DNA from: Caldilineae bacterium
GTDB lineage: Bacteria; Chloroflexota; Anaerolineae; JAAEKA01
Direction: 5' to 3'
DNA length: 64,000 nt
Assembly (NCBI GenBank): GCA_020634555.1
Contig: JACKBK010000017.1
Coordinates: 573-64,572, forward strand
The translations under genes and the position numbers were made by a program. Below are positions 28,901 to 49,207 of the stretch, piece by piece (position 1 is the first letter of the stretch; each line of letters opens with the position of its first letter). The notes beneath the pieces were generated by a model. It was given only the letters and a program-made list of their open reading frames with translations, had not been told where the DNA came from and ran no database searches.

Positions 28901-29095
28901 TGTGGCGGTGCTGATCACCCAGCCCGGTTCCACAATGCTTATCTCGTCAGGCGCGCCAGGAGCGGCCAGTGCCTGCGGCGCGTAAGCTGCCAGCAATCCA
29001 GAGAGCAGCGATACACACAGCAAGAGCCGCAGCGGCAAGCTATGAACGATCCTCATTTTCTGAAAAGTGGCGGGTCGTGTGTTGTTTCGTTTCAT
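25940..29095 (-). CDS. Cassette A: large secreted multidomain protein (N-terminal beta-propeller, Ig-like/carboxypeptidase-regulatory-like and cupredoxin-like repeats) ending in the conserved C-terminal anchor module
   Basis: Signal peptide LSGLLAAYAPQALA, propeller-like strands (IYIVDPLG, LWVVDATPPRLLRV, HIFVTDWTGDMIYTF), and the C-terminal 153 aa PLAVTLAAF...GFNLYR...PSQAPGSAQG...YWLEDVDVGG...PTAVTLASF + TM + RRKSR. Confidence 0.8.
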   Translation of the reverse strand: MKRNNTRPATFQKMRIVHSLPLRLLLCVSLLSGLLAAYAPQALAAPGAPDEISIVEPGWVISTATAAADPVGAHYNPIDGLLYYGRRPSSGGGGNLNRVNVDGTISSITAADRPSAVFVDPTDGDIFLSEDYGGGVYRTAYGTTTRTTWLSGLGSGDDDPVGMAVAPADYTGPILSAGQALLVDRGANSGGDYIWRWSPDTAEGEVLIYTDAQSVGPLGDPVDVAISSSAIYIVDPLGTADGTIFRLDDGPTLTPVTTQTPIADPRGITIDPLTGDLWVVDATPPRLLRVNPTTGAVSEMVTGFAGVLWAGVDTTPDGNHIFVTDWTGDMIYTFSRVPENQFHFDKSALAPRWSVTADPQSGVLEHSLSQDYFLSYYYGSPDANASPLSVTIDDELPTGMTLTGESHTPAMTFGQAGQTLTWQPEGQVARGQSGLISMAASYDNPVGGGVYTNTATLHAGPYQLEAQATTQIPVMAPLLTEPGSGELCPGDVDVSGVAQPNLDVLVLIDGVQVLQTQADAEGRFSIAYTYGGSATELLTVQACIPGGACSAPSSVVTLRPPLSFWCPQRSEWEGTPTVGPKAGQHLVFGFRNNSGEFASQNWRIPGVYGFWNTTLHLYGCNCPPESGTTGQPSSIWVIADNHRYDPTGAFPDYTFAITGGAHNVVFWADCGGNYVSSNGRILIDPDGYVFDVTQGFDPNDPTAHAIDGVTVTLYEYLPEWGGWTPWPAGLYNNQINPQVTSADGYFAFFTPPGQYYLQVDGKPGYQPWRSPVITVVNEIVHVNVPYTPWTEPPAIETVTEILLTAGGPQPPSVTVPAGTTVQWQAEVDGLSPADLATQTDNPVLQPLSVLNPISTTLGWDGGMLKPGQTYQREMNQPGPYTYTDGLGNQGQVCVDTCTPLAVTLAAFGAAARPDAIRVSWETVSEIDNAGFNLYRSLDGVWDSATLLAYVPSQAPGSAQGFTYQYDDADVTPGQTAWYWLEDVDVGGHTTRHGPVSATIQTPTAVTLASFDAAAGNPLNGLLAWTVLLLLLFASRLFTSWRRKSRLAGRED

Positions 29096-29160
29096 TGCAA
29101 GTATTCCTCCGTAGTAAGCGACTGCTGCGAAACAGGTTCAGGCAAGAAATTCATCGCTGG

Positions 29161-29198
29161 CTGGGGTAGCAGGCGAGTTTTCCCGTCCGCTACCCCAG
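29161..29198 (-). terminator. Intra-operon hairpin (possible attenuator) between the lipoprotein gene and the 1051-aa gene
   Basis: 10-bp stem ctggggtagc / gctaccccag with an 18-nt loop and no clear U-tract. Confidence 0.35.
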
Positions 29199-29212
29199 CA
29201 GCGTTTGAGGCT

Positions 29213-30169
29213 CTAGCCCTCCACCGCCAGCTCAGCTACCATGCCCATCATGAAGTGGGGCGCGCCATCGGCGTTGGACGAGGGGATGAAGCACAGAAGG
29301 CCATAGTGCTTGCCAGCCTCCAGATTGGCCGTGAAGTAGGCTTCACTGTCGGTGGCGATGGCGCCAATGCCGCCCACAGGCATGCCCGGCGGGGGACCAG
29401 CCGGGGCGTCGGATGCCATGGCAGCCAGGAAATCCTGCACGCTTGCGCCCGGCGCCAGTTCAATCAGCGAGAGTTCGTGCGGCTCGGTGCCTGTGTTGAC
29501 GACCTTGATGGTCTGGTCGCCTGGAGCCACGGTCTGGTCGGAGATCTTGAACTGGTAGTCCACCAGTTCCACGGTCAGGTCAGCATCAGGCGCCTGGGCC
29601 GTCGCGCCGCTGGCGGCGGTGACGCTGAAGGGCTTGATCAGTCCCTTTGCAGCGTGGGGAATCCCGTCAGGGCCGGGGATCACATCGATTACCACGTAGT
29701 CGCCTGCTTCCAGATTCACCATGGTAGAGGCACTGGCGCCCGGCATCACGCCGGTAGGCCCACCCGCGCTGGCCAACCACTCGGGCACGCCGGTTAGCTC
29801 GCCCTGCAGCGCAGCAGCCAGGTCGTTCATGGTCTTGCCCTCCAGGAAGCGGAAAAGCTGGGCCTGGTGTTGGTCCTCGCCCTGGTTGGTCAGTTCGACG
29901 CGCGTCCAGCCAGCCGGTGTGCTGTCCGGCCCGCTGAACCCGGTCTCGGTGGCGGTGAAGCTCACCGCGGGGATGGACGGCGCCTCGGCAGCCGGAGCCG
30001 GGGCCTGGCAGCCGGCAACCGCGAGAGACAGGACGCTGAGTATCAACAGGAAAATGGTCAAGTTGGTCTTTCGGTAGAACACGGTACACTCCTTGGATTG
30101 AAATAGGGTTTCCACTTGGATCACAAACATTTGGGGGTTTCGCAGTGATCTGCCAGACGGCAGTGTCAT
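29213..30169 (-). CDS. Cassette A: lipoprotein with a cupredoxin-like C-terminal Cys...His..Met motif
   Basis: Lipobox LSLAVAGC. The C-terminus LLCFIPSSNADGAPHFMMGMVAEL resembles the C-x-H-x-M ligand loop of blue copper proteins but with a longer Cys-His spacer. The ATG at 30169 overlaps the stop of the upstream small gene (ATGA). Confidence 0.6.
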   Translation of the reverse strand: MTLPSGRSLRNPQMFVIQVETLFQSKECTVFYRKTNLTIFLLILSVLSLAVAGCQAPAPAAEAPSIPAVSFTATETGFSGPDSTPAGWTRVELTNQGEDQHQAQLFRFLEGKTMNDLAAALQGELTGVPEWLASAGGPTGVMPGASASTMVNLEAGDYVVIDVIPGPDGIPHAAKGLIKPFSVTAASGATAQAPDADLTVELVDYQFKISDQTVAPGDQTIKVVNTGTEPHELSLIELAPGASVQDFLAAMASDAPAGPPPGMPVGGIGAIATDSEAYFTANLEAGKHYGLLCFIPSSNADGAPHFMMGMVAELAVEG

Positions 30170-30402
30170 CGCTTGCGTTGTTTTTCGTCGGGTTGTCCTC
30201 CTGTAGCGCTATCGGCGGGCTGTCGGCCCGAAATTTCCAGCGTCTCGTTCGTCATCTCCCCCAAGAAGGCCACCAGATCGCTCAATGCGCCGAAACTGTA
30301 TCGTTCCTTGACGTATGCGTTCTCCAGCGTTGCGTGCCATGGTTTGTCGTTGCCTGTGCGCCAGAGTCGCAGGACGTAGGCAAAGTAGTCTTGGTTCGAC
30401 AT
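30166..30402 (-). CDS. Cassette A: small (78 aa) conserved protein, paralog of 42483..42701
   Basis: YVLRLW...WHATLEN...KERYSFGALSDLVAFL aligns with FVLTCW...WRYSLER...GERLGFADLRELMAYV. In both cases it is the first gene of the operon and has a 4-nt ATGA overlap with the next gene. Confidence 0.6.
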   Translation of the reverse strand: MSNQDYFAYVLRLWRTGNDKPWHATLENAYVKERYSFGALSDLVAFLGEMTNETLEISGRQPADSATGGQPDEKQRKR

Positions 30403-30448: not shown

Positions 30449-30587
30449 GGGATGGCAGCTTCCAGGAGATGGCGGTTTTTGCCGGACGGCGTTCCTGACC
30501 CTCGCAGCTCGCTGCACACCTCGATCAGATGGCTTCAGCATACAGCATGACTCTTCAGGAAGTCTTTATTTTCCCTTCAGGAAAGCC

Positions 30588-33500
30588 ATGACCCGATCAG
30601 GATTGGCGATTTTCCTGCTGGGAGGTGTGCGAATCGAGTTGGACAGTTCGCCCGTCACCGGGCTTGCCTCACGCAAGGCCGAAGCCCTGTTGATCTATCT
30701 GGCCTACGAGCAGCAGGTCAAGAGCCGCGAGTTCCTGGCCGGAATGCTGTGGCCTGACTCCTCCCAGGCGCGGGGATTGGCCAACCTCAGCGTCGTGTTG
30801 ACCAGTCTGCGCAAGCAACTGGACCCTTTCCTCCACACAACGCATCAGACGATCGCCTTCGTTCACGATCGAGATTACACCCTGGATGTGGCTGATTTCG
30901 AGAGGGACATCGGTAACGCCCGGCGTCTGCAACAGCAACAGGGGCAGATAACCCGTGCAGCGGCGGCCTTGCTGATCAGCGCCACCGAGGCCTACCGGGG
31001 AGATTTTCTGGCAGGTTTCTCGATTCGACAAGCGCCCGATTTCGAGGCGTGGGCCTTGCTTGAACAGGAGCGATTGCGGCGGCTGGCACTGGAGGCCATG
31101 CACGACCTGGGCAATTTCTACATGGGGCGCGGCCAATTCACCACCGGCATCGAACAGGTTAACCGGTTGCTTGCATTGGACCCGCTGCGAGAGGATGGCC
31201 ACCGGTTGCTGATGCGCCTGCTGGCGCTGGACGGCCAGCGCGCGTCAGCCCTGGCGCAGTTCGACCGCTGTTTCGAGGTGCTGCGCGATGAACTGGGCGT
31301 CGAGCCAGACGACGAAACAGCCGCGTTGTATGAGGCAATTGCCAAGGACGAATTCCCGTCCGGCCAAGGCGTCCGGGAAGCAGCGCCTGCCATAGCTGCA
31401 GGCCAGGTTCCCGTCGCGCCCTCACACAACCTGCCCCACATCCCCACCCCGTTCGTGGGCCGCGAGCTAGAACAATCCCAGATCGCTGCCCGGCTGGACA
31501 GCCTGGACTGCCGTCTGTTGACGTTGACCGGCCCCGGCGGAATCGGCAAGACGCGGCTGGCCCTGCAAGCCGCGGGCCAGCGCCTGGCCACCTATCGCGA
31601 TGGCGTCTGGTTTGTGGGGCTGGCCGCACTGGACGACGCAGCCGGCATCCCATCGGCCATCGCCTCAGCCATGGGCTTCGCTTTTTCGGGGCCGGCCGAT
31701 CCCGCCAACCAGTTGGTGGATTTCCTGAGAAACAAGGAAACGCTGCTGCTGCTGGACAACTTCGAGCAACTGATCGGCGACCAAAGCCTGGATCTGGTCG
31801 CGCGCCTGCTGGCCGAGGCGCCGGGGACCCAGATGCTTGTCACCTCGCGCGAGCGGCTGAACCTGCAAGCCGAGTGGATCGTCGATGTGAGTGGACTGCC
31901 CTATCCGGCCGATTCCGCCGATCCCCGGGCCGGCCACTATGCCGCCGTGCGCCTTCTGGTACAGCACGCCCAACGCCTGCGAACAGACTTCAAGCTGGAT
32001 GCCACCAACCAGGCAGCCGTGGTGCGCATCTGCCAGATGGTGGATGGCATGCCTCTGGCCCTGGAACTGGCCGCGTCCTGGATCAGGGCCCTGGCGCCGC
32101 AGGAGATCGTCGCCGAGTTGGCGCGCGGCCTGGAAGTGCTCACTACCACAGCCCGGGATCTGCCGGCCCGCCACCGCAGCATCCGGGCAGTGTTTGACTA
32201 CTCGTGGCAATCCCTCAGCCAGGAGCAGCAGGTTGCCCTGATGCAGCTTTCGGTGTTCCGGGGCGGATTCACGCGAGAAACCGCAGCCGCGGTGGCAGGC
32301 GTAACGGCTGGCGTGCTGCTGGCATTGGTGGACAAATCGCTGGTGCGCCCCTTGGCGTCAGGCCGCTTCCTTAAACATGTGCTGACCAACCAGTACGCGG
32401 AGTCGCGCTTGGCCGAGCACCCCCAGCTTGAACGGCAGGTACATGCCGACCATGCCCGCTATTTCGCCGAGAGGCTGCAACGGCAGGAGCACGGCTTCTA
32501 CGGTTCCGATGACCGGAACGCCCTGGGTTGGATGGTGGCTGAGGAGGAGAACATCCGGCGCGCCTGGCGCTGGGCCGTGGCCGAACAAGACCTCACGCTC
32601 GTTGGCCACTTCCTGGAAAGCTTCCTTTATTTCTTCGACATTCAAGGACGCTACCGGGAAGGCGCCGAACTGACGCAGGAGGCGCTGGCAGCGCTGGCGC
32701 CCATTGACGGCGAAAGCGAACCCCGGTTTCGCCGGGTGCTGGGGCGGCTGACGGCTCTGGACGGCGGATTCCGCTTCCGCCTGGGCGATTTCGAGGGTAC
32801 CCGGCTCCAGGCTGAGCGCGCCGTTGCGCTGTTGGAGCCTTTCAGGCCGTTGCTGGACCTGGGCCACGCCTTTTTGTACCGGGGCATCGGCTTCTATGGC
32901 CTGGGCGATCTCGACAGATGCCTGGCGGATTCGCTGAGAGCCAGGGATGCCTATCGTGAGGCAGGCCATGCCTGGGGTGAGGGAGCGGCGCTGGACAACG
33001 CCGGCACCATCCTCTCCCTGCAAGGCCACCATGATGAGGGCCGCCGTCTGCACCTTGAGGCGCTGGAGATCGCCCAGAAGCTGGGCAGCCGCTACCTCAT
33101 GGCCGCTCTCCTGGGTGATCTGGCCAACATCGAAACGGCGGCTGGAGATCATGACAAGGCGCTGGACTATGCTGAACGCTCCCTGGCCGTGATTGAGGAG
33201 ATGGAACGGCCCTACATGACCGCCACTATCTCGCGCGCCCTGGGCGACATCGCCCTGCAAAGCGGTGACTACAGCGCGGCAGAAGAACACCTGGCCAAAG
33301 CCCTGGCTATCGCCCGCAACACCGGCAACCGCCTGGATCTGGCTGATGCCTTAGTACAGCTCGGCGCTGTCCACATGGCCCAGAAGCGCTATGAACTGGC
33401 AACCGAGGCCTACCAGGAGGCAGTTGCCACGGCAGGGGACATCCAGGCGCGCCTGATGGTCGCCGACGCGCTGGCAGGCTTGGGCGAGGTTGCAATACAC

Positions 33501-33704
33501 AGGGGAGCGCCGCACAAGGCTGTGACCCTGTTGGCTTTCGTGGTCACCAACGGTGTAAGCCGGGCCGAGACTTGCCAGAAGGCCGAAGCGCTGTTGCAGG
33601 AGGCATCCACCCTGCTTTCACGCGATGCGTACCAGAATGCTGAAAAGCGAGGACAGGCGCTGACTTCCGATGCCGCCATTGCCCTCGTGTCCAGGTACAC
33701 CTGA
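30588..33704 (+). CDS. Cassette A regulator: AfsR-like SARP (OmpR-type wHTH + BTAD), NB-ARC/STAND ATPase and TPR
   Basis: RKAEALLIYLAYEQ...LWPD, PDFEAWALLEQERLRRL, LDPLREDGHRLLMRLLALDGQRASALAQFDRCFEVLRDELGVEP (BTAD), Walker A GPGGIGKTRLAL, LLLLDNFEQL, and C-terminal TPR-like repeats. RBS AGGAAAG before the ATG at 30588. Confidence 0.85.
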   Translation: MTRSGLAIFLLGGVRIELDSSPVTGLASRKAEALLIYLAYEQQVKSREFLAGMLWPDSSQARGLANLSVVLTSLRKQLDPFLHTTHQTIAFVHDRDYTLDVADFERDIGNARRLQQQQGQITRAAAALLISATEAYRGDFLAGFSIRQAPDFEAWALLEQERLRRLALEAMHDLGNFYMGRGQFTTGIEQVNRLLALDPLREDGHRLLMRLLALDGQRASALAQFDRCFEVLRDELGVEPDDETAALYEAIAKDEFPSGQGVREAAPAIAAGQVPVAPSHNLPHIPTPFVGRELEQSQIAARLDSLDCRLLTLTGPGGIGKTRLALQAAGQRLATYRDGVWFVGLAALDDAAGIPSAIASAMGFAFSGPADPANQLVDFLRNKETLLLLDNFEQLIGDQSLDLVARLLAEAPGTQMLVTSRERLNLQAEWIVDVSGLPYPADSADPRAGHYAAVRLLVQHAQRLRTDFKLDATNQAAVVRICQMVDGMPLALELAASWIRALAPQEIVAELARGLEVLTTTARDLPARHRSIRAVFDYSWQSLSQEQQVALMQLSVFRGGFTRETAAAVAGVTAGVLLALVDKSLVRPLASGRFLKHVLTNQYAESRLAEHPQLERQVHADHARYFAERLQRQEHGFYGSDDRNALGWMVAEEENIRRAWRWAVAEQDLTLVGHFLESFLYFFDIQGRYREGAELTQEALAALAPIDGESEPRFRRVLGRLTALDGGFRFRLGDFEGTRLQAERAVALLEPFRPLLDLGHAFLYRGIGFYGLGDLDRCLADSLRARDAYREAGHAWGEGAALDNAGTILSLQGHHDEGRRLHLEALEIAQKLGSRYLMAALLGDLANIETAAGDHDKALDYAERSLAVIEEMERPYMTATISRALGDIALQSGDYSAAEEHLAKALAIARNTGNRLDLADALVQLGAVHMAQKRYELATEAYQEAVATAGDIQARLMVADALAGLGEVAIHRGAPHKAVTLLAFVVTNGVSRAETCQKAEALLQEASTLLSRDAYQNAEKRGQALTSDAAIALVSRYT

Positions 33705-36238: not shown

Positions 36239-36346
36239 TATTACCTCCTGACAGATACAACTCTTGGCGACAACCTGCAAGTCGTGGGTGCTCAGACATC
36301 CGGCGGGCGTTTGACGCGCGCCGGTTCTTGCACTAAACTTCCGTCC

Positions 36347-36381
36347 AGCATACACCCCTACTCTTTGACAACTCTTTGACT
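36347..36381 (-). promoter_or_regulatory. Cassette B: SARP-type promoter (two 11-bp-spaced direct repeats, then 8 nt, then a -10)
   Basis: Minus strand reads aGTCAAAGAGttGTCAAAGAGtaggggtgTATGCT: 9-nt core, 2 nt, 9-nt core, 8 nt, -10 hexamer. It faces the FG-GAP gene. Confidence 0.55.
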
Positions 36382-36495
36382 CGCTGTCCCGGTGCCTGCC
36401 ACTGTGGCAGTGACCGGTACCTCCACCGAGGGAAGCGACTGCTGTTTCAAGTGACAGTCACTGGCGGAAAGTGACTGCCATTGCCGACGACACCA

Positions 36496-39400
36496 ATGCT
36501 GCCTATGAACGGCCACCCGATCCAGATCCGATTGCTTGGCCCACCCCAGGTCTTGCGCGATGGTCAACCCGTCGAGGGCTGGCGATCGCGCAAGGCGCTG
36601 GGGCTGCTGGGCTATCTCGCGCTGAGCGACGGACCGGTGACGCGACCGGCGCTGGCTGAGCTGTTGTGGCCCGCCAGCGATGAGTCCCGGGGCCGCGCCA
36701 ACCTGAGCTGGGCGCTGAACCACGTTACCGGCTTGTTGCCCGGCTGTCTGGCCGCGGACCGCCACACGTTGCGGTTTGTCCGCGACAAAGCCGGCATCTT
36801 CCTGGACAGCGACCACTTTCGCCGCCTGAAGCGGCGCAACACCGTCGAGGCGCTGGAGGAGGCAGTATCGCTGGTGCAGGGCGAGCTGCTGGACGGGTTC
36901 TCGCTGGACGGCTGCCCCGATTTCGAGCTATGGCTGGTGCAGGAACGAGAACGTTGGCAGCGTTTGGTCGCTGACGCCTGGTCGACGCTGATCGCCCACC
37001 ATCGCTTCGCCGGCAACTACGAAACGGCCGTTGCCTATGCACGTCGCCTGCTGGCCTATCTTCCCTGGCAGGAGTCGGCGCACCGCCACCTGATGCTGCT
37101 GCTGGCGCTCAGCGGAAGACGCAGCGCGGCGCTGGCGCAGTACGAGATCTGCCGCCGCCTGCTGGCCGAGGAGCTAGGCGTCAAACCATCGGCAGAAACC
37201 ACGAGGCTCTACGAGGCGATTCGTTCGGGCGACGAGACCCGGCTGGCGGCGGCAATCGCAGGTGCAGAACCCAAGTCGCCGGTTCTGGCGGCAACACCCG
37301 GCGCGCGCTCGACTGCGCCGCGTCACAACCTGCCTCGCCAGTTCACGTCCTTCGTGGGCCGTGACCGAGAGCTGGCCGCCATCGCCCGGCGCCTGCATGA
37401 GCCTGAAACCGGCCTGATCACCGTGACCGGTCCCGGCGGTGTCGGCAAGACCCGCCTGGCAGTTGCTGCGGCCGCGGCGCATCTGGGTCACTTCGCGGAC
37501 GGCGTCTTCTTCGTCCCCCTGGCGCCACTGACTACCCCAGACCGGATTGTGCCGGCGCTGGCCGGCGTGCTGCAGTTCCCCTTTGACCAAAGACCTGATG
37601 GGGCAACGCCCGAGGACCAGTTGCTGGACTGGCTGGCCGGCAGGCAGGCGCTGCTGGTGCTGGACAACTTCGAGCACCTGACCGGCGGACCAGACTTCTT
37701 GCTTCAATTGCTGGCGCGCGCGCCAGAAGTCAAGCTGCTGGTCACCTCTCGCCACCACCTGAACCTGCAGGCTGAAACGCTGTTGGAGATCGCGGGCCTG
37801 CCCGTCCCGTCGGCCGGTGAAGACGATGCTGCCGAAACATATCCGTCGATGCGGTTGTTCGTGGATCGGGCGCGACGGCGGCGGTATGACTTCGAACTGG
37901 CCGCGCACGAGAGACCGCTGGCGGCCCGGCTATGCAGCTTATTGGCCGGCTATCCGCTGGCGTTGGAGTTGGCGGCCGCGCTGGTGGCCAGCCAGCCGTT
38001 GGAACAGATACTGGCCCAGGTGTCGGAAAATCTGGACATCCTGAAGACCTCCATGCACGATGTCCCGGCGCGCCATCTCAGCTTGCGAGCCGTTTTTCTT
38101 CACTCCTGGCATCTGCTTTCGCGGGAGGAGCAGGCTGCCCTGGCGTCGCTGGTCGTCTTTCGCGGCGGCTTCAGCGTTGACGCCTTCACCGCTGTCAGCG
38201 GCGCGCCGGAAGCGACCCTGCGCGGGCTGGTGCAGAAATCGCTGGTACAGGCGCTGGACGGCGAACGCTTCGATCTGCATTCGCTGATCGTCCAGTATCT
38301 GCGCGAGACACTGGACGACACAACCTACCATCTGGCCGGCAGTCGTCACAGCGCGTGGTACCTTGGCCGCGCCCAGGTTGATTCGCCACAACTGCTGGGC
38401 GAGGGCCAGCAGGCCGCGATGGCGCGCCTGCGCCAGGACCAGGACAACCTCAGTACGGCCTGGCAGCGCGCTGTCCGGCGTAAAGACCTTGCCACCATCC
38501 GCTCATCGGTGAGTGATCTGTACCGCTACTGGACGCGCCAAAACCACCTGCAGGCGGGAGTCGCTTTCTTCCAACGCGCCGCCGATGCGCTGGCCGAGAT
38601 TGATCCCGTGCTGGCTGCCGGTCTGCGGCTGCGGGCTATCGGCTGCATCCAGTGGGAGAGCTATCGCCCCGAGCACCTGGACCGTGCGCTGCGAGACCTT
38701 GCCGTTGTGCGCAAGGCAGGCAATCGTCACGATCTTGCGGCAGCCCTGTTGATGGCCGGCCGTTGCGCCGCCTACGCGATGAAAAACAGCGAGGGCAGCG
38801 AGCGAGACCTGCTTGCCGAAGCCGAAACGCTGCTTACCTTCCTCGATGACGATGAAGGAACGAGCGAGATCGCGATTCTGTGGGGGTATGTAGAGCAGCA
38901 ACTGGCCAACTACGCCGAAAGCCGCCGCTGGTATCGGGAAGCCGCCGCGGCATTGCGCCGGCGGGGCGACCAACAAAGGCTGGCGTTCGTTCTCTTCAGG
39001 CACGCACGCATGGCGTTTATGGCCGACTCCTTCGACGAGGCCAGCGAACTGGCCGGTGAGAGCCTCGCGCTGCATACCCGCATCGGCGACCAACGAGGTA
39101 TCCTGGACAGCCAGGTGACACTGGGGTTGGTGGCGTATCAGGCCGGACTGCTCGACAAGGCAGGTGTGTACTTCGAAGAAAGTCTGGAGCTTGCCCGCTA
39201 TCTTGGCAACCGGGCGCGCGTCGCTAACAACCTCAACAACCTTGGCGTGATCGCCCATCACCAGTGCCGCTACGACGAGTCGCAGAGTTGGTTTGAACAG
39301 GCACAGGCCGAGTTTGAAGCCATGGGCAGCCCGTTGGGCGTTGGGCTGGTGTTGACCAACTGGGGCCTGCTTGCCGAGGAAATGGGCGACCTGGACGAGG

Positions 39401-39825
39401 CTGAGAGTCTCTTGCAGGCCGCGCTGGCGGTCCGCCTGCGGGTTGGCAAGACCCGCGACGTGGTGATTACCCGGATCAATCTGGGGTTCGTGGTGGAAGC
39501 CAGAGGCGAGGTCGAGGCGGCGCTGGACCAGTTCCACCGGGCAGCACGCACCGGCATTGACAAAGCAATGCCGGGCTGGACCGTGGATGCGCTGGCCGGC
39601 ATCGCACTGGCGCGGTTGGATGCCGGCCGGCTGGAAGATGGCGTCGCGCTGGCCGGGCTGGCGCTGGCCGCCGAGTCCCTGGCTCCCTACGCCCGCAAAA
39701 AGCTTAACGCGCGGCTGGAAGCGATGCGCGTCGAGATCTCGCCGCAACGACTGGACCATATGCTGGCTCAAGGGCGCGCGCTGGATCTCGACGCCACCGC
39801 GCGAGCGATCATCGAAGACCGGTGA
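36496..39825 (+). CDS. Cassette B regulator: AfsR-like SARP, NB-ARC/STAND ATPase and TPR
   Basis: IRLLGPPQVLRDGQPVEGWRSRKALGLLGYLAL, PDFELWLVQERERWQRL, QESAHRHLMLLLALSGRRSAALAQYEICRRLLAEELGVKP, GPGGVGKTRLAV, LLVLDNFEHL, TPR-like C-terminus. The start is uncertain (TTG 36481, ATG 36496 or ATG 36505). Confidence 0.85.
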   Translation: MLPMNGHPIQIRLLGPPQVLRDGQPVEGWRSRKALGLLGYLALSDGPVTRPALAELLWPASDESRGRANLSWALNHVTGLLPGCLAADRHTLRFVRDKAGIFLDSDHFRRLKRRNTVEALEEAVSLVQGELLDGFSLDGCPDFELWLVQERERWQRLVADAWSTLIAHHRFAGNYETAVAYARRLLAYLPWQESAHRHLMLLLALSGRRSAALAQYEICRRLLAEELGVKPSAETTRLYEAIRSGDETRLAAAIAGAEPKSPVLAATPGARSTAPRHNLPRQFTSFVGRDRELAAIARRLHEPETGLITVTGPGGVGKTRLAVAAAAAHLGHFADGVFFVPLAPLTTPDRIVPALAGVLQFPFDQRPDGATPEDQLLDWLAGRQALLVLDNFEHLTGGPDFLLQLLARAPEVKLLVTSRHHLNLQAETLLEIAGLPVPSAGEDDAAETYPSMRLFVDRARRRRYDFELAAHERPLAARLCSLLAGYPLALELAAALVASQPLEQILAQVSENLDILKTSMHDVPARHLSLRAVFLHSWHLLSREEQAALASLVVFRGGFSVDAFTAVSGAPEATLRGLVQKSLVQALDGERFDLHSLIVQYLRETLDDTTYHLAGSRHSAWYLGRAQVDSPQLLGEGQQAAMARLRQDQDNLSTAWQRAVRRKDLATIRSSVSDLYRYWTRQNHLQAGVAFFQRAADALAEIDPVLAAGLRLRAIGCIQWESYRPEHLDRALRDLAVVRKAGNRHDLAAALLMAGRCAAYAMKNSEGSERDLLAEAETLLTFLDDDEGTSEIAILWGYVEQQLANYAESRRWYREAAAALRRRGDQQRLAFVLFRHARMAFMADSFDEASELAGESLALHTRIGDQRGILDSQVTLGLVAYQAGLLDKAGVYFEESLELARYLGNRARVANNLNNLGVIAHHQCRYDESQSWFEQAQAEFEAMGSPLGVGLVLTNWGLLAEEMGDLDEAESLLQAALAVRLRVGKTRDVVITRINLGFVVEARGEVEAALDQFHRAARTGIDKAMPGWTVDALAGIALARLDAGRLEDGVALAGLALAAESLAPYARKKLNARLEAMRVEISPQRLDHMLAQGRALDLDATARAIIEDR

Positions 39826-39980: not shown

Positions 39981-40670
39981 TTAACTGCGTTTCTGCCGGT
40001 ATGTCACAACCGGTAGGGCAGCCAGCGCCGCGAACAGCACCGCCGGCAACAACCACACCGGCGCAACCGGAGTCTCACCTGCGCTGGCCGTCAGTACAGC
40101 CATGGTAACTGCGGTCGGACCTGCCAGCGCAGCCGTGACCGGGCCGTGCACCGTTCCCTGACCGCCAAGGTCTACATCCTCCAGCCAGTAATAGTAGGTC
40201 GGACCCGGCTCCACCTCCGCGTCCCGGTAGTTGTACTCAAAACCCTGCGCGCTGCCTGGGGCTTGAGAGGGCACGAAGGCCAACAGGCTTGCACCGGCCC
40301 AGTCATCATTGGTGCCGCGGTAGAGGTTGAAGCCGGTGCAGTCGATCTCACTCACCGTCTGCCACTCAACCAGAATGCTTGCGCCATCTTGCCGGGCGGT
40401 GAATCCGGCCAGTGTCACGGCCAGAGGCGCTTGCAGGCCGGGCTGCCAAAACCCGCCGCGTACAGTGTACCCGCCGCCTGAGACCGTCCCCGCTGCCGAA
40501 CCGACGCTGCCCCGCAACAGATACGCGCCTGCGCTGCTGGCTCCGCCACCCTGTGTGGTTGACCTGGTGACTGTCCACCCGCCGCCACTCTGAGCCATGG
40601 CCGTCGTCGCTGGCAAAGCCAGCAGCAGAACGGCAACAGCGGCGACGAAAGTAACGCATCGTTTGATCAT
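39981..40670 (-). CDS. Cassette C: small secreted Gly-rich protein consisting mostly of the conserved C-terminal anchor module
   Basis: Signal peptide ALPATTAMA, SGGGYTVRGGFWQPG motif, then 148 aa PLAVTLAGF...GFNLYR...PSQAPGSAQG...YWLEDVDLGG...PTAVTMAVL + TM + RQKRS. Confidence 0.75.
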   Translation of the reverse strand: MIKRCVTFVAAVAVLLLALPATTAMAQSGGGWTVTRSTTQGGGASSAGAYLLRGSVGSAAGTVSGGGYTVRGGFWQPGLQAPLAVTLAGFTARQDGASILVEWQTVSEIDCTGFNLYRGTNDDWAGASLLAFVPSQAPGSAQGFEYNYRDAEVEPGPTYYYWLEDVDLGGQGTVHGPVTAALAGPTAVTMAVLTASAGETPVAPVWLLPAVLFAALAALPVVTYRQKRS

Positions 40671-40701
40671 GGTTGTTCCTCGCTTTCTCTTTGTCAGTCT
40701 G

Positions 40702-42486
40702 TCAGAAGACCACGATCATGATGTCCTCGGCGTCCTCCGGGAAGTCCGAGGTGTCGGTGATGGTGCAGTAGAGCTGCTGCGCGCCATCCGGCCAGCAGTT
40801 CACATAGCCCAGCCTGCGCAGCCCTGTTGAGGACGGCAATTGATCGGTCACTGTCGCTATCCAATAGCGCCCGGTGAGCGGGAAACCGAAGTTGACCGCG
40901 CAGCTGTCATCATCGGAGTCGGTAAGGAACGAGATCGTCGTGCCGTAGACAGACTGGCCGTGGATCAGCCCGGAGTCGCTGCCGTCGCATCTGCCAAAAG
41001 CAGCCGCCTTGGCCAGGCCTAACTGGCCAACTGGCTGCCAAAGCGCGCCCGAGTCGTCCACGTTGAACACAGGGCTGCCGGATTCATCCTGTATCTGGAA
41101 GTCGGAGTCCTCGTCGCCCCCACCGATGTCCAGCATGACCGTCACGTCGTCATCGCTGGCGAAGACCAGATCGCCGCTGACGTAGTTGGGATCGGTGCTG
41201 ATGCGGCCATCGTCATCCGTGCCGCTGTTGCCGCCAAGCACGAGGTCAGGCACTAGGTCCCCCTGGCTGCGGGCATAGAGGCCGCCGCCTTGAGGCACCG
41301 AGGTGTTGGCCCCGTCGTTGACGAACTCGCCACCGTAGTCCTCAGAGTCGGTGGTCCGCGCATAGACACCGGTGTTGCCGGCATCGGCCACATGAATGCC
41401 GTCCTGGCCGGCCGTCTCCACGTGAATTCCGTGCGCTCCCGGATTGACGACGCGCACACCGTCGGCAACAGTGTTGCCCACCTGCACGCCGTCGTCCAAC
41501 GCCGATGCAACCTGCACCCCATCGCCGGCAGGCTGGTCGATGAACACCCCGTTGCCGTCGGCCGTGCTCACCGACAGACCGTCGCCCCCGGCATAGTTGA
41601 CGGACAGGCCATCCTCGGTAGCCGAGTTAACGTGGACTCCGTCGGTCCCGGCCACGTCCACACGCACGCCGGCCTGGTTGGCGCTTTCGACCAACACGCC
41701 GTTGAACACCCCTGCGGACACCTTGAGACCGTCGCTGGTCTTGACGCTTCCGATCACTTCCAGGCGTTCGCTGGGAGCAGGCGTCCCCATGCCAACCCTG
41801 CCGTCCTGCTTGACCCACAGTTGGTCGGTGATGCCGAAGCGCAGCACCCAGGCGTTGGTCGTTGGCTGATAATAGTGATACGCCTTGAGCTGCCCCTCGT
41901 TGGCGTAGCCGTAGAACGCCCAAGCGCCGGGATCGGTGGTATTGACGTACATGCCACCCCGCCCATCGCCGGGCGCGTCCACACCGAAGGCTTCCCTGCT
42001 TTCGATGGGCGAGTCGCGCCCAACACCTACGAAGGGCAGACTCTCATCAGTGTAGAGTCCAGGCAGCGCCAGTGCGACCGGCGACGGCGTCATGGACTGG
42101 CGCGGGCTCAGCACAGTGCCGTTCACCGTGATTTCCAGATAACGGGCGCCGCCGCCGAACGCGCCGCTGCCGAAGTCCAGCTCGGCCGTAAACAACCCTT
42201 CGTCCACCAGAACACCCGTCAATGCCGCTGCACCGCCGATCTGGTTGCCTGCGCCGCTGGCTGTGGGATCATCCCACAAGGTAAAGGTGAAATCGACCGC
42301 ACCTGTGATGGGACCGGCCGTGTCTTCCAGATATCCCTGGTAGGTGAAGGCTGTACCTATCGTGCTTCGGACCGCGTTTGGACCTGCTTCGGGCAGGCGA
42401 GGTCCTTCCTCCTGAGCCAGCGCAATACCTGCCGGGGTGAGGAGCGCGAGCAGCGTTGCCAGCAGAGCAATCATCGTTCGTTTCAT
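40702..42486 (-). CDS. Cassette C: secreted protein with a tail-fibre-like N-terminal domain and a central xxDG(V/L)xV beta-helix-type repeat region
   Basis: Signal peptide LLTPAGIALA, FTYQGYLEDTAGPITGAVDFTFTLWDD...GLFTAELDFGSGAFGGGARYLEITV, and ~12 repeats such as GTDGVHVNSATEDGLSVNYAGGDGLSVSTADGNGVFIDQPAGDGVQV. It has no C-terminal anchor module. Confidence 0.75.
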   Translation of the reverse strand: MKRTMIALLATLLALLTPAGIALAQEEGPRLPEAGPNAVRSTIGTAFTYQGYLEDTAGPITGAVDFTFTLWDDPTASGAGNQIGGAAALTGVLVDEGLFTAELDFGSGAFGGGARYLEITVNGTVLSPRQSMTPSPVALALPGLYTDESLPFVGVGRDSPIESREAFGVDAPGDGRGGMYVNTTDPGAWAFYGYANEGQLKAYHYYQPTTNAWVLRFGITDQLWVKQDGRVGMGTPAPSERLEVIGSVKTSDGLKVSAGVFNGVLVESANQAGVRVDVAGTDGVHVNSATEDGLSVNYAGGDGLSVSTADGNGVFIDQPAGDGVQVASALDDGVQVGNTVADGVRVVNPGAHGIHVETAGQDGIHVADAGNTGVYARTTDSEDYGGEFVNDGANTSVPQGGGLYARSQGDLVPDLVLGGNSGTDDDGRISTDPNYVSGDLVFASDDDVTVMLDIGGGDEDSDFQIQDESGSPVFNVDDSGALWQPVGQLGLAKAAAFGRCDGSDSGLIHGQSVYGTTISFLTDSDDDSCAVNFGFPLTGRYWIATVTDQLPSSTGLRRLGYVNCWPDGAQQLYCTITDTSDFPEDAEDIMIVVF

Positions 42487-42701
42487 CGGTTGTCTCCCTT
42501 CATTTCGTTTTCAGAGTCCTCAAGGCTGCGCCGAACGTACGCCATCAGCTCGCGCAGGTCCGCGAAACCCAGGCGCTCGCCCTGGCTACCGATACGTTCC
42601 AGCGAATAGCGCCAGGATGTTTGCAGCGACCTCGGTATCGTTGACTCGGACCAGCAGGTCAAAACGAACGTTTGGCGCCGGCTCTTGCGCTGAGATGACA
42701 T
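42483..42701 (-). CDS. Cassette C: small (72 aa) conserved protein, paralog of 30166..30402
   Basis: RBS AGGAAG before the ATG at 42701. MSSQRKSRRQTFVLTCWSE...WRYSLERIGSQGERLGFADLRELMAYV. ATGA overlap with the 594-aa gene. Confidence 0.6.
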   Translation of the reverse strand: MSSQRKSRRQTFVLTCWSESTIPRSLQTSWRYSLERIGSQGERLGFADLRELMAYVRRSLEDSENEMKGDNR

Positions 42702-42899
42702 TGTCTTCCTTTCATCCAGGCTATCAGCGGGCCGTTGCCCGCAAACACAACAACTTCTTCCCATGGGAAAACACCACGATCTGCATCTCACCGGACCCTA
42801 CATCCTCCGGTTTAATGCACGCTATCTGGATGTTCCTGACTGCGATCATGGTTTCCTCCTTTGTTAGTTGCGCCGTAACAACTCAGCCGACAGAGTGGT

Positions 42900-42964
42900 G
42901 TCATTCCCGCGAAGGCGGGAATCCTGGGCTGCGAGGAGTGGATTCCCGCCTTCGCGGGAATGAC
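42900..42964. repeat. Inverted pair of REP-type hairpins
   Basis: tcattcccgcgaaggcgggaatcc ... ggattcccgccttcgcgggaatga. This is the same hairpin type as unit A of the 8.5-9.3 kb array. Confidence 0.75.
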
Positions 42965-43035: not shown

Positions 43036-43064
43036 TTGCTCCATCCTCTTGTCAAGTGTATAGT
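43036..43064 (+). promoter_or_regulatory. Candidate sigma70 promoter for regulator C
   Basis: TTGCTC, 17 bp, TATAGT. It overlaps the opposite-strand -10 of the cassette C promoter. Confidence 0.4.
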
Positions 43065-43095
43065 TTATGTGTCCCTCGTTTGCATATCGTTTGCA
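43062..43095 (-). promoter_or_regulatory. Cassette C: SARP-type promoter (two 11-bp-spaced direct repeats, then 8 nt, then a -10)
   Basis: Minus strand reads TGCAAACGAtaTGCAAACGAgggacacaTAAACT, the same 9-2-9-8-hexamer geometry as cassette B. Confidence 0.5.
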
Positions 43096-43130: not shown

Positions 43131-46100
43131 GTGAACCCTCGGCAGACTCAACAACCGTCAACCATCCGATTGCTGGGACCGCTGCGGCTCGAGAACCAGG
43201 AAGAGGTAATCACCAACTTCCGGTCTCGCCGCGTTGCCGCGCTGATAGCCTATGCCGTTGTCGAAGCGCGTCCCATCCCACGCGCCGGGTTGGTGGAACT
43301 GCTCTGGCCGGACAAGCCAGAAAAACAGGGACGAGCCAACCTGCGGTGGGCGCTCAACCAGGCAAGCAAACTGTTGCCGGGATGTTGGGAGATCGACCGC
43401 CAGGTTGTGGGGTTCGATCCTGGCCAAAACTGTTATGTCGATCTCCACGCGTTGGAGGCGGCGTTGACCCAGGACGACACCGACATACTGGCACACGAAG
43501 TCGCTGCCGTACAGGGCGATTTCCTGGCGGGCTTCTACCTCGACAATTCGCCCGAATTCGAGAACTGGATGGTCATGGCACGCGAGGCGTGGCGGCGGCT
43601 GATCGAGAATGCGCTGACGCGGCTGATCGACCACTACGCGCACACCAGGCAGTACAGCGACGCACTGCGGTTTGCCCGCCAGCGCCTTGCCATGGATCCC
43701 TGGGTAGAAGAGTCCCATCGGACGGTGATGCAGCTGCTGGTACGGCTGGGCGAGATGGACGCAGCGTTGGCCCAGTTCGAGAGTTGCCAGCGCATTCTGG
43801 CTGATGAATTGGGGGTTGGACCGACGGCTGAAACAGTGGCCCTGGCGCAACGCCTGCGCCAGTTGGCGGCCGGCCCGCGCCATAACCTGCCTGCCCAGCC
43901 TACGCGCTTCGTAGGCCGCGAAGCTGAGCTCGATCTGTTAGCGCAGTGGTTGGCCGATCCCTCTTGCCGAATGATAACCCTGGTGGGGCCAGGCGGTGTG
44001 GGAAAAACGCGCGTGGCGTTGGCAGCGGCGGAACAACAGGCGTCGAACTTCCTTGACGGCGTTACCTTCCTGGCGCTGGCACGGGTCAACCCCGCCAGTG
44101 TGGACGATGCGGGGATTCTTCTCATCACTGCTTTGGTCGATGCGCTGGGGTTGTCGTCTTCCCGGCAACAGTCGCCGCGCGAACATCTGCTCGCTCACCT
44201 GACGAACCAGGAGCGGCTTTTGGTGTTGGACAATTTTGAGCTGCTGTTGGGCGGCGTTGACGTGCTGGTGGAGATTGTACAGCGCGCCCCCGGCGTGAAG
44301 CTGCTGGTAACTTCACAGGAAAGACTCAACGTGCGTTGGGAGCGCATGCTGGCCATCGACGGGCTTCCCTGTCCGGCTTCCGGGGCCGATCCACACTGGC
44401 AGGAGTGCAGCGCAGTGCAGTTGTTTGTCCAGGCCGCGCGCCGGGCGAATCCCGCCATTGCCATCAGCGCCGGTGATCGGGAGTCGGTGGTCCGCATTTG
44501 CCGGCTGGTGGAGGGGTTGCCGCTGGGATTGGAGCTGGCTGCTTCATGGGTGCGCGTCCAAAGCTGCGCTGCGATTGCCGATGAAATCCAGCACAGCTTC
44601 GATGTCCTCAAGGCGCATCAACGCGACCGTCCTGCCCGCCAGCAAAGCATGCGTTCGGTCTTCGACCATTCCTGGCAACTTCTCTCACCGGCCGAACAGG
44701 CGACATTGAGCCAGATAGCGATCTTACAGGGAGAGTTCACCTTCCCGGCCGCATATGAGGTAGCCGGTGCGACCTGGGAGGTGCTATCGACGCTGGTCGA
44801 CAAATCACTTTTACGTCAGAGTTCGGTAATCGAAGCCGACAGGTCACAAGAGACAGCACACCGCACCGGTCGTGCCGAGATAGCTTTTGCGCTGCACGCG
44901 CTGGTACGCCAATACGCCTTCGAGCGCCTGAAAAGCGACCCGGCGCAGGAGCTGGCCGCTCGTCAGCGCCATGCCCGTTATTACGCCGCACTGCTGGCGG
45001 AGAACGGCAGCCACCTGCGCAGCGGCCCGCAGCAGACCATCGCCATGGCCCTGATGGAGCGGGAGATCTCAAACATCCGGGCTGCCTGGGAGTGGGCCAT
45101 CGCACAACCGAAAGTGGAGCTGATCACCCAACTGCTGCCAGAGCTTGCCTTCTACTTCGACCTCCGCAATCCGGCCGACGGCGCCCAGTTGATGAACCGT
45201 TCAGCAAAGGTGTTGTTGGACGCCAGTTCACGAGAACCGGCCGTGGAACTGGCCAGAGCACGCATCCTGCTCGATCAGGTTCGATTTGCTCTGGCAACCG
45301 GCAAACGCCGCGATGAGGCCGTGCATGAGATGCAGGCATACCTGGCCTTGTTTGAACAGAAGGAGGCGCACCACGACATTGCCCGAACGCTGCACTATCT
45401 GGGCAATGCTTACTACCCCGATCAACTGGAGCGGGCGACTTGCTATTGGCAGCGCAGCCTCGAACTCTACCGGCAGACAGGCGACCGCTGGGCAATGGCC
45501 CGGATACTGATGAATCTAGGTGTAACCGCCGGCACCTTCAACCAGGCGCGCACGTTTTACCGGGAAAGCATGCGACTGTGCCGTGCGCTGGATGACCAGG
45601 TGCTGGAAGGACATCTGATGTTCCACCTCGCGAACATCGAAGAACAGTTGGGCAACTACGCCGCGGCTGAAGATCTGGCAGCGAGATCTGTCGAACAGCT
45701 ACGAGCGGTCGGCGACCCCTACAATTTATTCATCGGTCTGATCAACCTGGTTGCTGCGCTGCAAGGCCAGGGAAAGCTCGACCAGGCGCGCCGCTCTCTC
45801 CACGAGGCCGAGGTGATCACTCAAATGTCGGGAACACACTGGAACAGGATGTTGCTGGCGTTGTATTGGGGCCGGCAGACGCTGGCGGAGGGTGACGTCG
45901 AGAGGGCCGAACGGCTGTTTCAAGGCTCGCTGGCAGACGCCGAGTCGACGAAATATGTCGGGCACATTCAGCAATGCATGATCAGCCTTGGCCGGATCTG
46001 CCTGGATCAAGGGCGTGACATCGAAGCCCGCGACTGGTTTGAGCGAAGCCTGCAAGCCAACGATCAGCAAGACCGCAAGAGCGGCACCTGCCGGCTGGAA

Positions 46101-46268
46101 GCATTGGTACATCTCGGGGAAATCGAACTGCGGGCGGGTGAGGCAGCCGGGTCAAAAGCCCACTTCCAGGCCGCGTACGACCAGGCTGTGGCAATCGGCG
46201 CAGAAGTTGTATGGCGCCGCCTGATGCACCGGCAGAACCATGCTCACCAGCCCCAGGGCACACACTGA
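43131..46268 (+). CDS. Cassette C regulator: AfsR-like SARP, NB-ARC/STAND ATPase and TPR
   Basis: GTG start after GGGAGA. IRLLGPLRLENQEEVITNFRSRRVAALIAYAVV, PEFENWMVMAREAWRRL, EESHRTVMQLLVRLGEMDAALAQFESCQRILADELGVGP, GPGGVGKTRVAL, LLVLDNFELL, TPR-like C-terminus. Confidence 0.8.
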   Translation: MNPRQTQQPSTIRLLGPLRLENQEEVITNFRSRRVAALIAYAVVEARPIPRAGLVELLWPDKPEKQGRANLRWALNQASKLLPGCWEIDRQVVGFDPGQNCYVDLHALEAALTQDDTDILAHEVAAVQGDFLAGFYLDNSPEFENWMVMAREAWRRLIENALTRLIDHYAHTRQYSDALRFARQRLAMDPWVEESHRTVMQLLVRLGEMDAALAQFESCQRILADELGVGPTAETVALAQRLRQLAAGPRHNLPAQPTRFVGREAELDLLAQWLADPSCRMITLVGPGGVGKTRVALAAAEQQASNFLDGVTFLALARVNPASVDDAGILLITALVDALGLSSSRQQSPREHLLAHLTNQERLLVLDNFELLLGGVDVLVEIVQRAPGVKLLVTSQERLNVRWERMLAIDGLPCPASGADPHWQECSAVQLFVQAARRANPAIAISAGDRESVVRICRLVEGLPLGLELAASWVRVQSCAAIADEIQHSFDVLKAHQRDRPARQQSMRSVFDHSWQLLSPAEQATLSQIAILQGEFTFPAAYEVAGATWEVLSTLVDKSLLRQSSVIEADRSQETAHRTGRAEIAFALHALVRQYAFERLKSDPAQELAARQRHARYYAALLAENGSHLRSGPQQTIAMALMEREISNIRAAWEWAIAQPKVELITQLLPELAFYFDLRNPADGAQLMNRSAKVLLDASSREPAVELARARILLDQVRFALATGKRRDEAVHEMQAYLALFEQKEAHHDIARTLHYLGNAYYPDQLERATCYWQRSLELYRQTGDRWAMARILMNLGVTAGTFNQARTFYRESMRLCRALDDQVLEGHLMFHLANIEEQLGNYAAAEDLAARSVEQLRAVGDPYNLFIGLINLVAALQGQGKLDQARRSLHEAEVITQMSGTHWNRMLLALYWGRQTLAEGDVERAERLFQGSLADAESTKYVGHIQQCMISLGRICLDQGRDIEARDWFERSLQANDQQDRKSGTCRLEALVHLGEIELRAGEAAGSKAHFQAAYDQAVAIGAEVVWRRLMHRQNHAHQPQGTH

Positions 46269-49122: not shown

Positions 49123-49207
49123 GCCGAAGTGGCGGAACAGGCAGACGCGACGGTCTCAAAAACCGTTGAGCATCACGCTCATGTGGGTTCGAGTCCCACC
49201 TTCGGCA
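49123..49207 (+). tRNA. tRNA-Leu (anticodon CAA), class II with a long variable arm
   Basis: Hand-folded: acceptor GCCGAAG/CTTCGGC, anticodon stem ACGGT/ACCGT with loop CT-CAA-AA, variable arm TGAGC-ATCAC-GCTCA, T arm GTGGG-TTCGAGT-CCCAC, discriminator A. CCA is not fully encoded. Confidence 0.9.

Follow-up and report, generated by a model that had tools for sequence, protein, structure and literature searches.

The window, by which we mean the whole 64-kb stretch of DNA that was analysed, has a G+C content of approximately 63% and contains three paralogous cassettes, A, B and C. In each cassette, the gene of a regulator of approximately 1040-1110 aa on the plus strand faces an operon on the minus strand. 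The genes are arranged as follows.

30588..33704, plus strand: RegA, a large SARP-like regulator of 1038 aa (wHTH-BTAD-NB-ARC-TPR)
25940..30402, minus strand: cassette A operon (A1-A2-A3)
30402..30166, minus strand: A1, a small beta-beta-beta-alpha protein of 78 aa
30169..29213, minus strand: A2, a secreted, weakly cupredoxin-like protein of 318 aa
29095..25940, minus strand: A3, a surface protein of 1051 aa with the shared C-terminal anchor domain
36496..39825, plus strand: RegB, a large SARP-like regulator of 1109 aa with Ser71 in the predicted recognition helix
33785..36238, minus strand: B1, the cassette B target, 817 aa, a surface protein that contains FG-GAP repeats, a signal peptide and the shared C-terminal anchor domain
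43131..46268, plus strand: RegC, a large SARP-like regulator of approximately 1045 aa with a GTG start and an Arg at the position of RegB Ser71
39981..42701, minus strand: cassette C operon (C2-C3-C4)
42701..42483, minus strand: C2, a homologue of the small protein A1, 72 aa
42486..40702, minus strand: C3, a secreted protein of 594 aa
40670..39981, minus strand: C4, 229 aa, which carries the shared anchor domain

Over their first 300 residues, RegA, RegB and RegC are approximately 40% identical in pairwise comparisons, and independent gene calls in near-identical contigs return the same 1038-aa product for RegA. The C-termini of A3, B1 and C4 contain a common domain of approximately 120 aa, 51-66% identical over its length, after which come a hydrophobic helix and a basic tail; therefore, all three operons deliver anchored surface proteins. 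Domain and family searches reveal no biosynthetic genes in the three cassettes. An ORF of 41 aa with a strong Shine-Dalgarno sequence (C1, 42849..42724) was considered as the first gene of cassette C and rejected, because its frame is disrupted by indels of 2 nt and 5 nt in the orthologous locus L082, although the DNA is similar.

Inspection of the intergenic regions reveals direct repeats followed by a -10-like hexamer on the minus strand in each cassette:

36361..36380, minus strand: cassette B operator, GTCAAAGAG tt GTCAAAGAG, a direct-repeat pair with an 11-bp period
36347..36352, minus strand: cassette B -10-like hexamer TATGCT, separated by 8 nt from the proximal core
43076..43095, minus strand: cassette C operator, TGCAAACGA ta TGCAAACGA
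43062..43067, minus strand: cassette C -10-like hexamer TAAACT, within the conserved block TAAACTATACA
30551..30583, minus strand: cassette A operator, three 11-nt units, TTCCTGAAGGG, AAAATAAAGAC and TTCCTGAAGAG
30537..30542, minus strand: cassette A -10-like hexamer TATGCT, identical to that of B, 8 nt after unit 3

The sequence-only reading had quoted the strings of cassettes B and C, both of which are present in the window exactly as written, and had described them as a core, 2 nt, the same core, exactly 8 nt and a TAnnnT hexamer. Within the window, this description holds for both. The minus-strand cores of cassette B lie at 36380..36372 and 36369..36361, with the identity of the two repeats extending to 10 nt (GTCAAAGAGT), and those of cassette C lie at 43095..43087 and 43084..43076; the spacers between the proximal core and the hexamer are taggggtg and gggacaca, respectively, each of 8 nt. 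The geometry is not confined to B and C, as had been supposed, since cassette A has it too: its third unit is followed by the 8-nt spacer tcatgctg and the hexamer, and an exact 9-mer is shared by units 1 and 3 at a period of 22 bp.

If transcription starts 7 nt past the hexamer, the repeats of B and C fall exactly on -40 to -19 when the next 2 nt beyond each proximal core are counted in. For cassette B, the predicted start is at approximately 36340, which would leave a leader of approximately 100 nt before the B1 ATG at 36238 and would place the operator itself at about -40 to -21. The predicted starts of cassettes C and A are at approximately 43055 and 30530, the latter with a putative leader of approximately 128 nt before the A1 ATG at 30402. 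These -10 hexamers are identified solely by their match to the consensus, and little is established about promoters in Chloroflexota. A sigma-70 consensus scan of the B and C intergenic regions finds no -35/-10 pair on the minus strand, in agreement with the earlier statement that a -35 element is absent. The TTGTCA of cassette B, which straddles the 2-nt spacer and the proximal core, was discarded as a -35 box in that it lies only 13 bp from the -10.

Patterns of this kind might be chance matches or non-functional duplications, and replication slippage does make short tandem duplications. However, only three exact repeats of at least 9 nt at period 11 occur in the whole window, two of which are those of B and C, and the estimated chance expectation is approximately 0.4 per period. 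The 20-nt tandem patterns of B and C, with up to 3 mismatches allowed, are each found once in the window, compared with 0.08 and 0.03 times in dinucleotide-preserving shuffles. When both strands are scanned for the composite pattern (two 11-nt units matching at 9/11 positions or more, then 5-7 nt, then TAnnnT), three sites are returned against a shuffle mean of 0.25, and B and C are the two best matches over the whole window. The third site, at 15335, is in a coding region and speaks for chance in that it passes the scan, whereas the 0.03-0.25 sites expected from shuffles speak against it. This site and the third exact period-11 repeat (position 749) are inside long ORFs and were treated as chance.

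A comparison with orthologous loci reveals which parts of the intergenic regions are retained. In L001, whose regulator is 75% identical to RegB over the SARP region, GTCAAAGAGttGTCAAAGgG, the 8-nt spacer length and TATGCT are kept and the spacer sequence is changed (GTCAAAGAGttGTCAAAGGGgcaatggtTATGCT): the repeats match those of cassette B at 18/20 positions and the hexamer at 6/6, the spacer at only 2/8, and the upstream DNA differs by large indels. Three orthologues of RegC, which were reached via a protein search and are 82% (L082, TGCAAACGAtgTGCAAACGAagcctcgTAAACT), 65% (L081, TGCAAACGAtcTGCAAACGCagccgcaTAAACT) and 53% (L083, TGCAAACGAtcTGTAAACGAttatcagTAGACT) identical, keep TGCAAACGAnnTG[CT]AAACG[AC] and TAAACT or TAGACT. 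In all three, the spacer is 7 nt rather than 8, so the "exactly 8 nt" of the sequence-only reading does not stand as a constant; judged from the aligned loci, the spacing is 7-8 nt, with a tolerance of +/-1 that depends on the framing of the core. The RegC orthologue in L028 was left out of this comparison because it runs past the end of the locus sequence, and a RegC relative from a metagenome scan (48% identity over 62 residues, at a contig end) was too weak and partial to be used. For cassette A, the near-identical strains (L084-L091, 99.4-99.8% identical) offer no useful variation in the intergenic region. More distant loci with regulators 49-53% identical to RegA (L008 and L015/L040) conserve units 2 and 3, with AAAATAAAGAG-TT[TC]CTAAAG[AG]G followed by 8 nt and then by TAAGCT or TAGAAT. 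Among orthologues with 53-82% protein identity, the spacers and flanking DNA have diverged but the repeats and the -10 box are retained, which argues against chance matches and non-functional duplications.

One genome per species was scanned for related loci, which yielded 79 loci; 80 of the 310 genome matches were retrieved. All 79 are from metagenome-assembled genomes, most of them Chloroflexota by label (including Anaerolineae, Ardenticatenaceae, Caldilineae and Chloroflexia), and a few have other labels. Within 350 bp upstream of the regulator, an exact repeat of at least 8 nt at period 11 is present in 30 of 76 Chloroflexota loci; other periods from 8 to 26 occur in 0-3 of the 76 (3 for period 22), and the coding control contains no such repeat at period 11. 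The sequence of the repeat varies from locus to locus, for example, CACGTTTTCC, TCACACGCT, CTCGCTACG, TTCCACGCG and ATTCAAG. In roughly half of the related loci, the detection used here picks up no clear repeat. Conservation and the enrichment tests, with a family-wide excess that is specific to period 11, refute the chance explanation as far as sequence evidence can do so, and we regard it as having practically no probability.

The repeats are also oriented. A TAnnnT hexamer 6-10 nt past the exact run is found at 18 sites in the divergent orientation versus 1 in the orientation of the regulator (32 loci), and the full composite, as scored with a tolerant detector (at least 8/11 matches), is found in 39/82 loci in the divergent orientation, 5/82 in the regulator orientation and 0/82 coding controls. 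When the loci are anchored on the hexamer, the lag-11 identity is at least 0.67 from -19 to -8, except for 0.50 at -18, and it reaches background 6-7 nt before the hexamer. The 11-bp period is joined to a spacer of 8 nt in A, B and C and of 7-8 nt in the orthologues, which is the arrangement of a SARP-dependent promoter. As read from these loci, the SARP-type operator-promoter design is one that recurs across Chloroflexota.

The identity of the regulators was assessed by domain searches and structure prediction. The BTAD domain (Pfam PF03704) is matched with E-values of 2e-23 in RegA, 5.7e-24 in RegB and 1.3e-14 in RegC, all past the curated cut-off, and in all three proteins it directly follows the DNA-binding domain. 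Matches to NB-ARC, to AAA_16 or AAA_22 and to TPR_12 are found in all three as well, which corresponds to the central NB-ARC/NOD and C-terminal TPR regions of large SARPs. Pfam Trans_reg_C is sub-threshold in RegA (E = 0.0033) and has no match in RegB or RegC; the wHTH assignment is based on the predicted structure and on a phmmer alignment with AfsR, in which residues 9-246 of RegB align with the AfsR chains of 8hvr, 8k60 and 8jke (E = 2.7e-6). The AlphaFold model of RegB 1-270 (pLDDT 93.5) consists of a beta-sheet, helices H32-43, H50-57 and H63-80, and a beta-hairpin wing, an OmpR-type winged helix as in the SARP family. Among PDB structures, the model is closest to the AfsR SARP domain in transcription initiation complexes (8k60, 8hvr; E = 8.8e-13 to 2.8e-11, TM 0.67-0.76), with EmbR next.

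The NCBIfam AfsR model aligns over residues 7-899 of RegB, and RegB scores 112 bits against the AfsR equivalog NF053617, for which the cut-off is 1430. On these scores, RegB is AfsR-like in architecture but is not an AfsR orthologue. The claim that the regulators are SARP-type is borne out by the BTAD, NB-ARC and TPR matches and by the AfsR-like fold of the RegB model: RegA, RegB and RegC are large SARP-type proteins that are distant from AfsR and have a divergent winged helix. The actinomycete host and secondary-metabolite clusters of the usual SARP description are not found here; these features are typical of the family and do not define it.

In the alignment with AfsR, Ser71 of RegB corresponds to R87, at the N-terminal end of the recognition helix alpha-3; the neighbouring residue, T88, makes a base contact in the AfsR structure (PMC10936776). 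Residues at this position co-vary with the operator. Where the regulator has an Arg, CG is present in the core at 29 of 30 exact-repeat loci, and the sole exception has CG in the distal copy only. Where it has a Ser, CG is present at none of 6 exact-repeat loci, which contain AAG or GAG instead, and CG is likewise missing from five further Ser-type loci, whose repeats are imperfect. The Ser types belong to at least 6 separate clades of a neighbour-joining tree; in these counts, kinship is accounted for by the number of clades only. The closest contrast is between RegB and L001, with the helix ANLSWALN and the core GTCAAAGAG, and L002 and RegC, with the helix ANLRWALN and the cores GTCAAACGC and TGCAAACGA, respectively. 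Additionally, four out-of-sample loci that were picked via the small protein all combine an Arg with CG-containing repeats. The proposal that each regulator has its own operator variant is thereby strengthened.

Head-to-tail winged-helix activators of the PhoB/OmpR type likewise use 11-bp direct repeats that replace the -35 box, and it is conceivable that the repeats are bound by another OmpR/PhoB-type protein (e.g., a response regulator), with the SARP-like neighbour being coincidental. PhoP does share the afs box with AfsR (PMC10972967). However, the operator co-varies with the recognition-helix residue of the adjacent regulator in several clades, and members of this regulator family have such repeats beside them at many loci, with a sequence that differs from one locus to the next, which makes a different binding protein very unlikely. 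The pho box is approximately 10 bp from the -10 box, and PhoB contains a receiver domain but lacks BTAD, NB-ARC and TPR; in the regulators described here, Response_reg has no match, and an N-terminal winged helix is followed by BTAD.

The rule on which the sequence-only reading relied is stated in the literature: the direct repeats of SARPs have an 11- or 22-bp period, and the 3' repeat is 8 bp from the -10 box (PMC10936776). In the case of afsS, the promoter has a 22-bp afs box from -40 to -19, with its centre at -29.5, and the contact that sigma region 4 otherwise makes with a -35 box is taken over by two SARP protomers (PMC10936776). The cassettes resemble the AfsR/afs box system of Streptomyces coelicolor (8hvr, 8k60, 8jke) in the wHTH-BTAD-NB-ARC/NOD-TPR domain order, in the fold predicted here for the SARP domain (TM approximately 0.7) and in the two 11-bp repeats, which lie at -40 to -19 over a poor or absent -35 and approximately 8 bp from the -10. 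They differ in that the host belongs to Chloroflexota (Anaerolineae) rather than to the actinomycetes, the identity of the SARP domains is only approximately 26-27%, the repeats read nnnnnnACGnT or nnnnAAGAG rather than CGTT(T/C)ATCGNN, the regulator and its target form a divergent pair, and the targets are a small protein and surface proteins rather than a regulator of secondary metabolism. Pathway-specific small SARPs (ActII-ORF4, DnrI and RedD, with heptameric TCGAG-type repeats) also use two to three repeats at an 11-bp, sometimes 22-bp, period beside the -10, and cassette A is similar to these in its three units and exact 22-bp repeat; unlike the regulators here, small SARPs consist of wHTH and BTAD only, lie inside antibiotic biosynthetic clusters and have different repeat sequences.

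The SARP-type interpretation is supported by the footprinting, the family enrichment, the strand bias, the fold and the co-variation. From these sequence comparisons, it is probable that RegA, RegB and RegC each bind their own 11-bp repeats and activate the divergent operon from a promoter that lacks a -35 box. Each regulator would most likely bind its repeat pair as a head-to-tail dimer, and a trimer on the three units is possible for RegA. The bound repeats would cover about -40 to -19 of a promoter with a -10 but no -35, directed away from the regulator gene. If AfsR is taken as the model, the bound SARP domains would make up for the absent -35 contact and bring in RNA polymerase ("sigma adaptation"), and the divergent operon would be switched on to produce the small protein (A, C) and secreted or surface-anchored proteins, with the NB-ARC and TPR domains gating the activity on a signal. 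The binding, activation rather than repression, the positions of the transcription starts and the gating signal are what we infer; a box at -40 to -19 could be compatible with repression as well.

The regulators' own promoters bear on another explanation, in which the repeats are mainly autoregulatory, and the bound regulator blocks or roadblocks its own gene instead of switching on the divergent operon. In the B region, the consensus scan finds a single promoter, which is on the plus strand:

36311..36339, plus strand: candidate sigma-70-type regB promoter, TTGACG-17 nt-TAAACT, which faces the B1 promoter

Both hexamers and the 17-nt spacing of this candidate promoter are conserved in L001, in which the spacer sequence differs, and its -10 is 7 bp from the minus-strand -10 of cassette B. 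A regB transcript from it would cross the operator at about +15 to +35. Additionally, the conserved block TAAACTATACA of cassette C reads TATAGT on the plus strand, and the distance from the distal repeat to the start codon of the regulator is only 4 bp in A and 35 bp in C. Against a mainly autoregulatory function, a -10 occurs at a fixed short distance on the divergent strand (18 sites versus 1 and 39 loci versus 5, as above), and the divergent promoters have no -35 box, which is the setting where SARPs work as activators (PMC10936776). Autoregulation may well coexist with activation, yet it leaves the geometry unexplained, and as the main function of the repeats, it is improbable. With activation of the divergent operon as the preferred reading, a secondary hypothesis is that the regulator and target promoters may compete and that the bound regulator may damp its own synthesis too.

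The earlier estimate of a leader of approximately 355 nt in cassette C is arithmetically sound, in that the distance from the predicted start at approximately 43055 to the C2 ATG at 42701 is 354 nt, but it does not describe a general feature. Relative to L082 and L081, the leader of cassette C contains an insertion of approximately 125 nt, which includes the following element.

42903..42961: a pair of inverted REP-like palindromes (ATTCCCGCGAAGGCGGGAAT) in the predicted C leader, inside the insertion

Under the same assumption for the start, the leaders of the orthologues would be approximately 229 nt in L082, 128 nt in L081 and 0-2 nt in L083, whose ATG starts 8 nt past the hexamer; the long leader is thus lineage-specific. 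No Rfam family is found in the three leaders, and the sole Rfam match in the window is a tRNA at 49123-49207.

SARPs are described as mainly actinomycete (PMC10936776, PMC10972967) and as regulators of antibiotic production (PMC10936776). A literature search found no paper that treats SARPs and Chloroflexota together, which is an absence from the search results and not from the literature. The presence of large SARPs and their promoters in Chloroflexota, outside antibiotic clusters, is an extension of known biology and not a new principle. It indicates that the operator-promoter design is common in Chloroflexota and is associated there with surface proteins and conserved small proteins instead of antibiotic clusters, and it extends the reach of activation in the style of "sigma adaptation". 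Additionally, transcription units and regulons of uncultured Anaerolineae become predictable from sequence alone, and approximately 40 natural regulator-operator pairs with differing specificities constitute a data set for the reading of DNA by the SARP helix.

A conserved partner protein of approximately 70 aa, which the sequence-only reading did not anticipate, is a further observation. In the window, the targets comprise this small protein and surface proteins with FG-GAP, CarboxypepD_reg-like and anchor domains. A homology search with the single A1 sequence returned only itself, and a profile was needed to find homologues. With the A1 profile, 50 of the 79 loci, in addition to cassettes A and C, are found to carry a homologue immediately upstream of the regulator gene and on the other strand. 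Among 37 loci with the promoter geometry, 27 were scored as carrying the small gene, and three added C-type loci carry it too; the predicted start is often only 14-33 nt before the small ORF. In the reverse test, which proceeds from the small protein, all four long contigs (4/4) contain a divergent BTAD-NB-ARC-TPR gene 114-277 bp away, and in the same four, a -10-like box is preceded by repeats with a period of 11 or 22 bp.

The consensus of the small-protein family is Y.AYLLRLW...WRASLE.P.TGER.GFASL..L..FL. No Pfam or NCBIfam model matches the small protein, and every source name among its homologues is "hypothetical protein". The predicted model contains three strands and a helix, with a mean pLDDT above 90 over residues 11-50, and a fold search with it gave no significant PDB match (best E = 0.63). 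One tentative possibility is that the SARP-NOD-TPR regulator and the divergent beta-beta-beta-alpha protein of approximately 70 aa, under a SARP-type promoter, form a self-contained signalling module that is widespread in Chloroflexota, with the small protein as a dedicated partner, for example, a feedback ligand or anti-activator of the TPR/NOD sensor or a downstream effector. If this is true, dozens of regulator-operator pairs encode a readable specificity code, such as helix Arg with CG and Ser with AG. The genes located 3' of the small gene vary among the loci: surface proteins are encoded here, and acetyltransferases, proteases and methyltransferases are encoded elsewhere.

Across the related regulator loci, the residue aligned with position 71 of RegB, the large SARP-like regulator of cassette B, is either arginine or serine, and this alternation co-varies with the presence or absence of CG in the adjacent 11-bp repeat.

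Around 36706-36708: codon of RegB residue 71, located in the predicted recognition helix at its N-terminal end.

CG is found in 29/30 repeat cores of the Arg-type regulators and in none of the cores of the Ser-type regulators (0/6, plus 0/5 further), which are spread over at least six clades. The rule also holds in all four of the out-of-sample loci, and this position may represent a readable specificity determinant of SARP-type winged helices.

Large SARP-NOD-TPR regulators are directly adjoined by a divergent gene for a protein of about 70 aa with the consensus YLLRLW...WRASLE..TGER.GFASL..L..FL, and genes of this family usually come first downstream of the predicted SARP-type promoter.

30166-30402, minus strand: small-protein gene of this family.
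42483-42701, minus strand: small-protein gene of this family.

Family genes are also present in 50 of the 79 related loci L001-L079, in the RegC orthologue loci L081-L083 and in L092-L095, which were reached from the small protein, and are absent from cassette B and from its orthologous locus L001. The family, which is uncharacterised and annotated as hypothetical in every source, has no model in Pfam or NCBIfam; the fold is predicted to be beta-beta-beta-alpha, for which the PDB holds no significant neighbour.

The last gene products of the three cassettes (A3, B1 and C4) share in their C-terminal parts one domain of approximately 120 aa.

25940-29095: A3, domain at the C-terminus.
33785-36238: B1, domain at the C-terminus.
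39981-40670: C4, carrying the domain.

The domain, with 51-66% identity among the three proteins, follows the pattern PLAVTLA.F...WETVSEIDN.GFNLYR...PSQAPGSAQG...WYWLEDVD...HGPVSA..PTAVT and precedes a hydrophobic helix and a basic tail. No family model matched it; its probable role is anchoring at the cell surface. It is also encoded in L001, where the target gene adjoining the regulator otherwise differs from that of the window. Additionally, L001 (1-2838 and 5001-8321) contains, besides the RegB orthologue, a gene resembling regA (45% identical) whose relative position matches that in the window, so that the tandem cassette arrangement predates the split between the two organisms.

Two further elements are located upstream of regB.

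36311-36339, plus strand: candidate sigma-70-type regB promoter (TTGACG, 17 nt, TAAACT).
36455-36477, minus strand: inverted repeat CAGTCAC-N9-GTGACTG in the regB 5' region.

Both hexamers and their spacing are kept in L001. The candidate promoter faces the predicted B1 promoter with 7 bp between the -10 boxes, which suggests promoter competition or negative autoregulation. The inverted repeat, partly kept in L001 (CAGCCAC...GTGCTTG), lies approximately 20-40 nt ahead of the regB start codon, where it could form a structure in the 5'-UTR or serve as a second operator.

The predicted 354-nt leader of cassette C contains an ORF.

42724-42849, minus strand: ORF of 41 aa whose Shine-Dalgarno sequence, aaaggaggaaaccATG, is strong.

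In L082, the DNA remains similar across this region despite 2-nt and 5-nt indels that break the frame, which makes leader RNA the more likely reading than a gene. At another C-type locus, L083 (3840-3880, minus strand), by contrast, the small-protein ATG starts only 8 nt past the -10-like TAGACT, which implies an mRNA with little or no leader.

Palindromes related to those of a tandem array occur at 61478-61497 and, within the leader of C, at 42903-42961.

8535-9326: array of 7.2 copies of a 110-bp unit, 94% matches.

Each unit contains two GC-rich palindromes, of the ATGCCCGCGAAGGCGGGCAT and ACTCCCGCGGAGGCGGGAGT types, and mechanical ORFs overlap the array; a REP/BIME-like array and a repeated coding unit are the candidate readings. 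Three other features, unconnected to the promoter finding, are present in the window.

3467-8221, minus strand: 1584-aa multi-domain M28/PA/MA peptidase.
49123-49207, plus strand: tRNA gene.
50704-53385, plus strand: 893-aa protein with four cyclic-nucleotide-binding domains.
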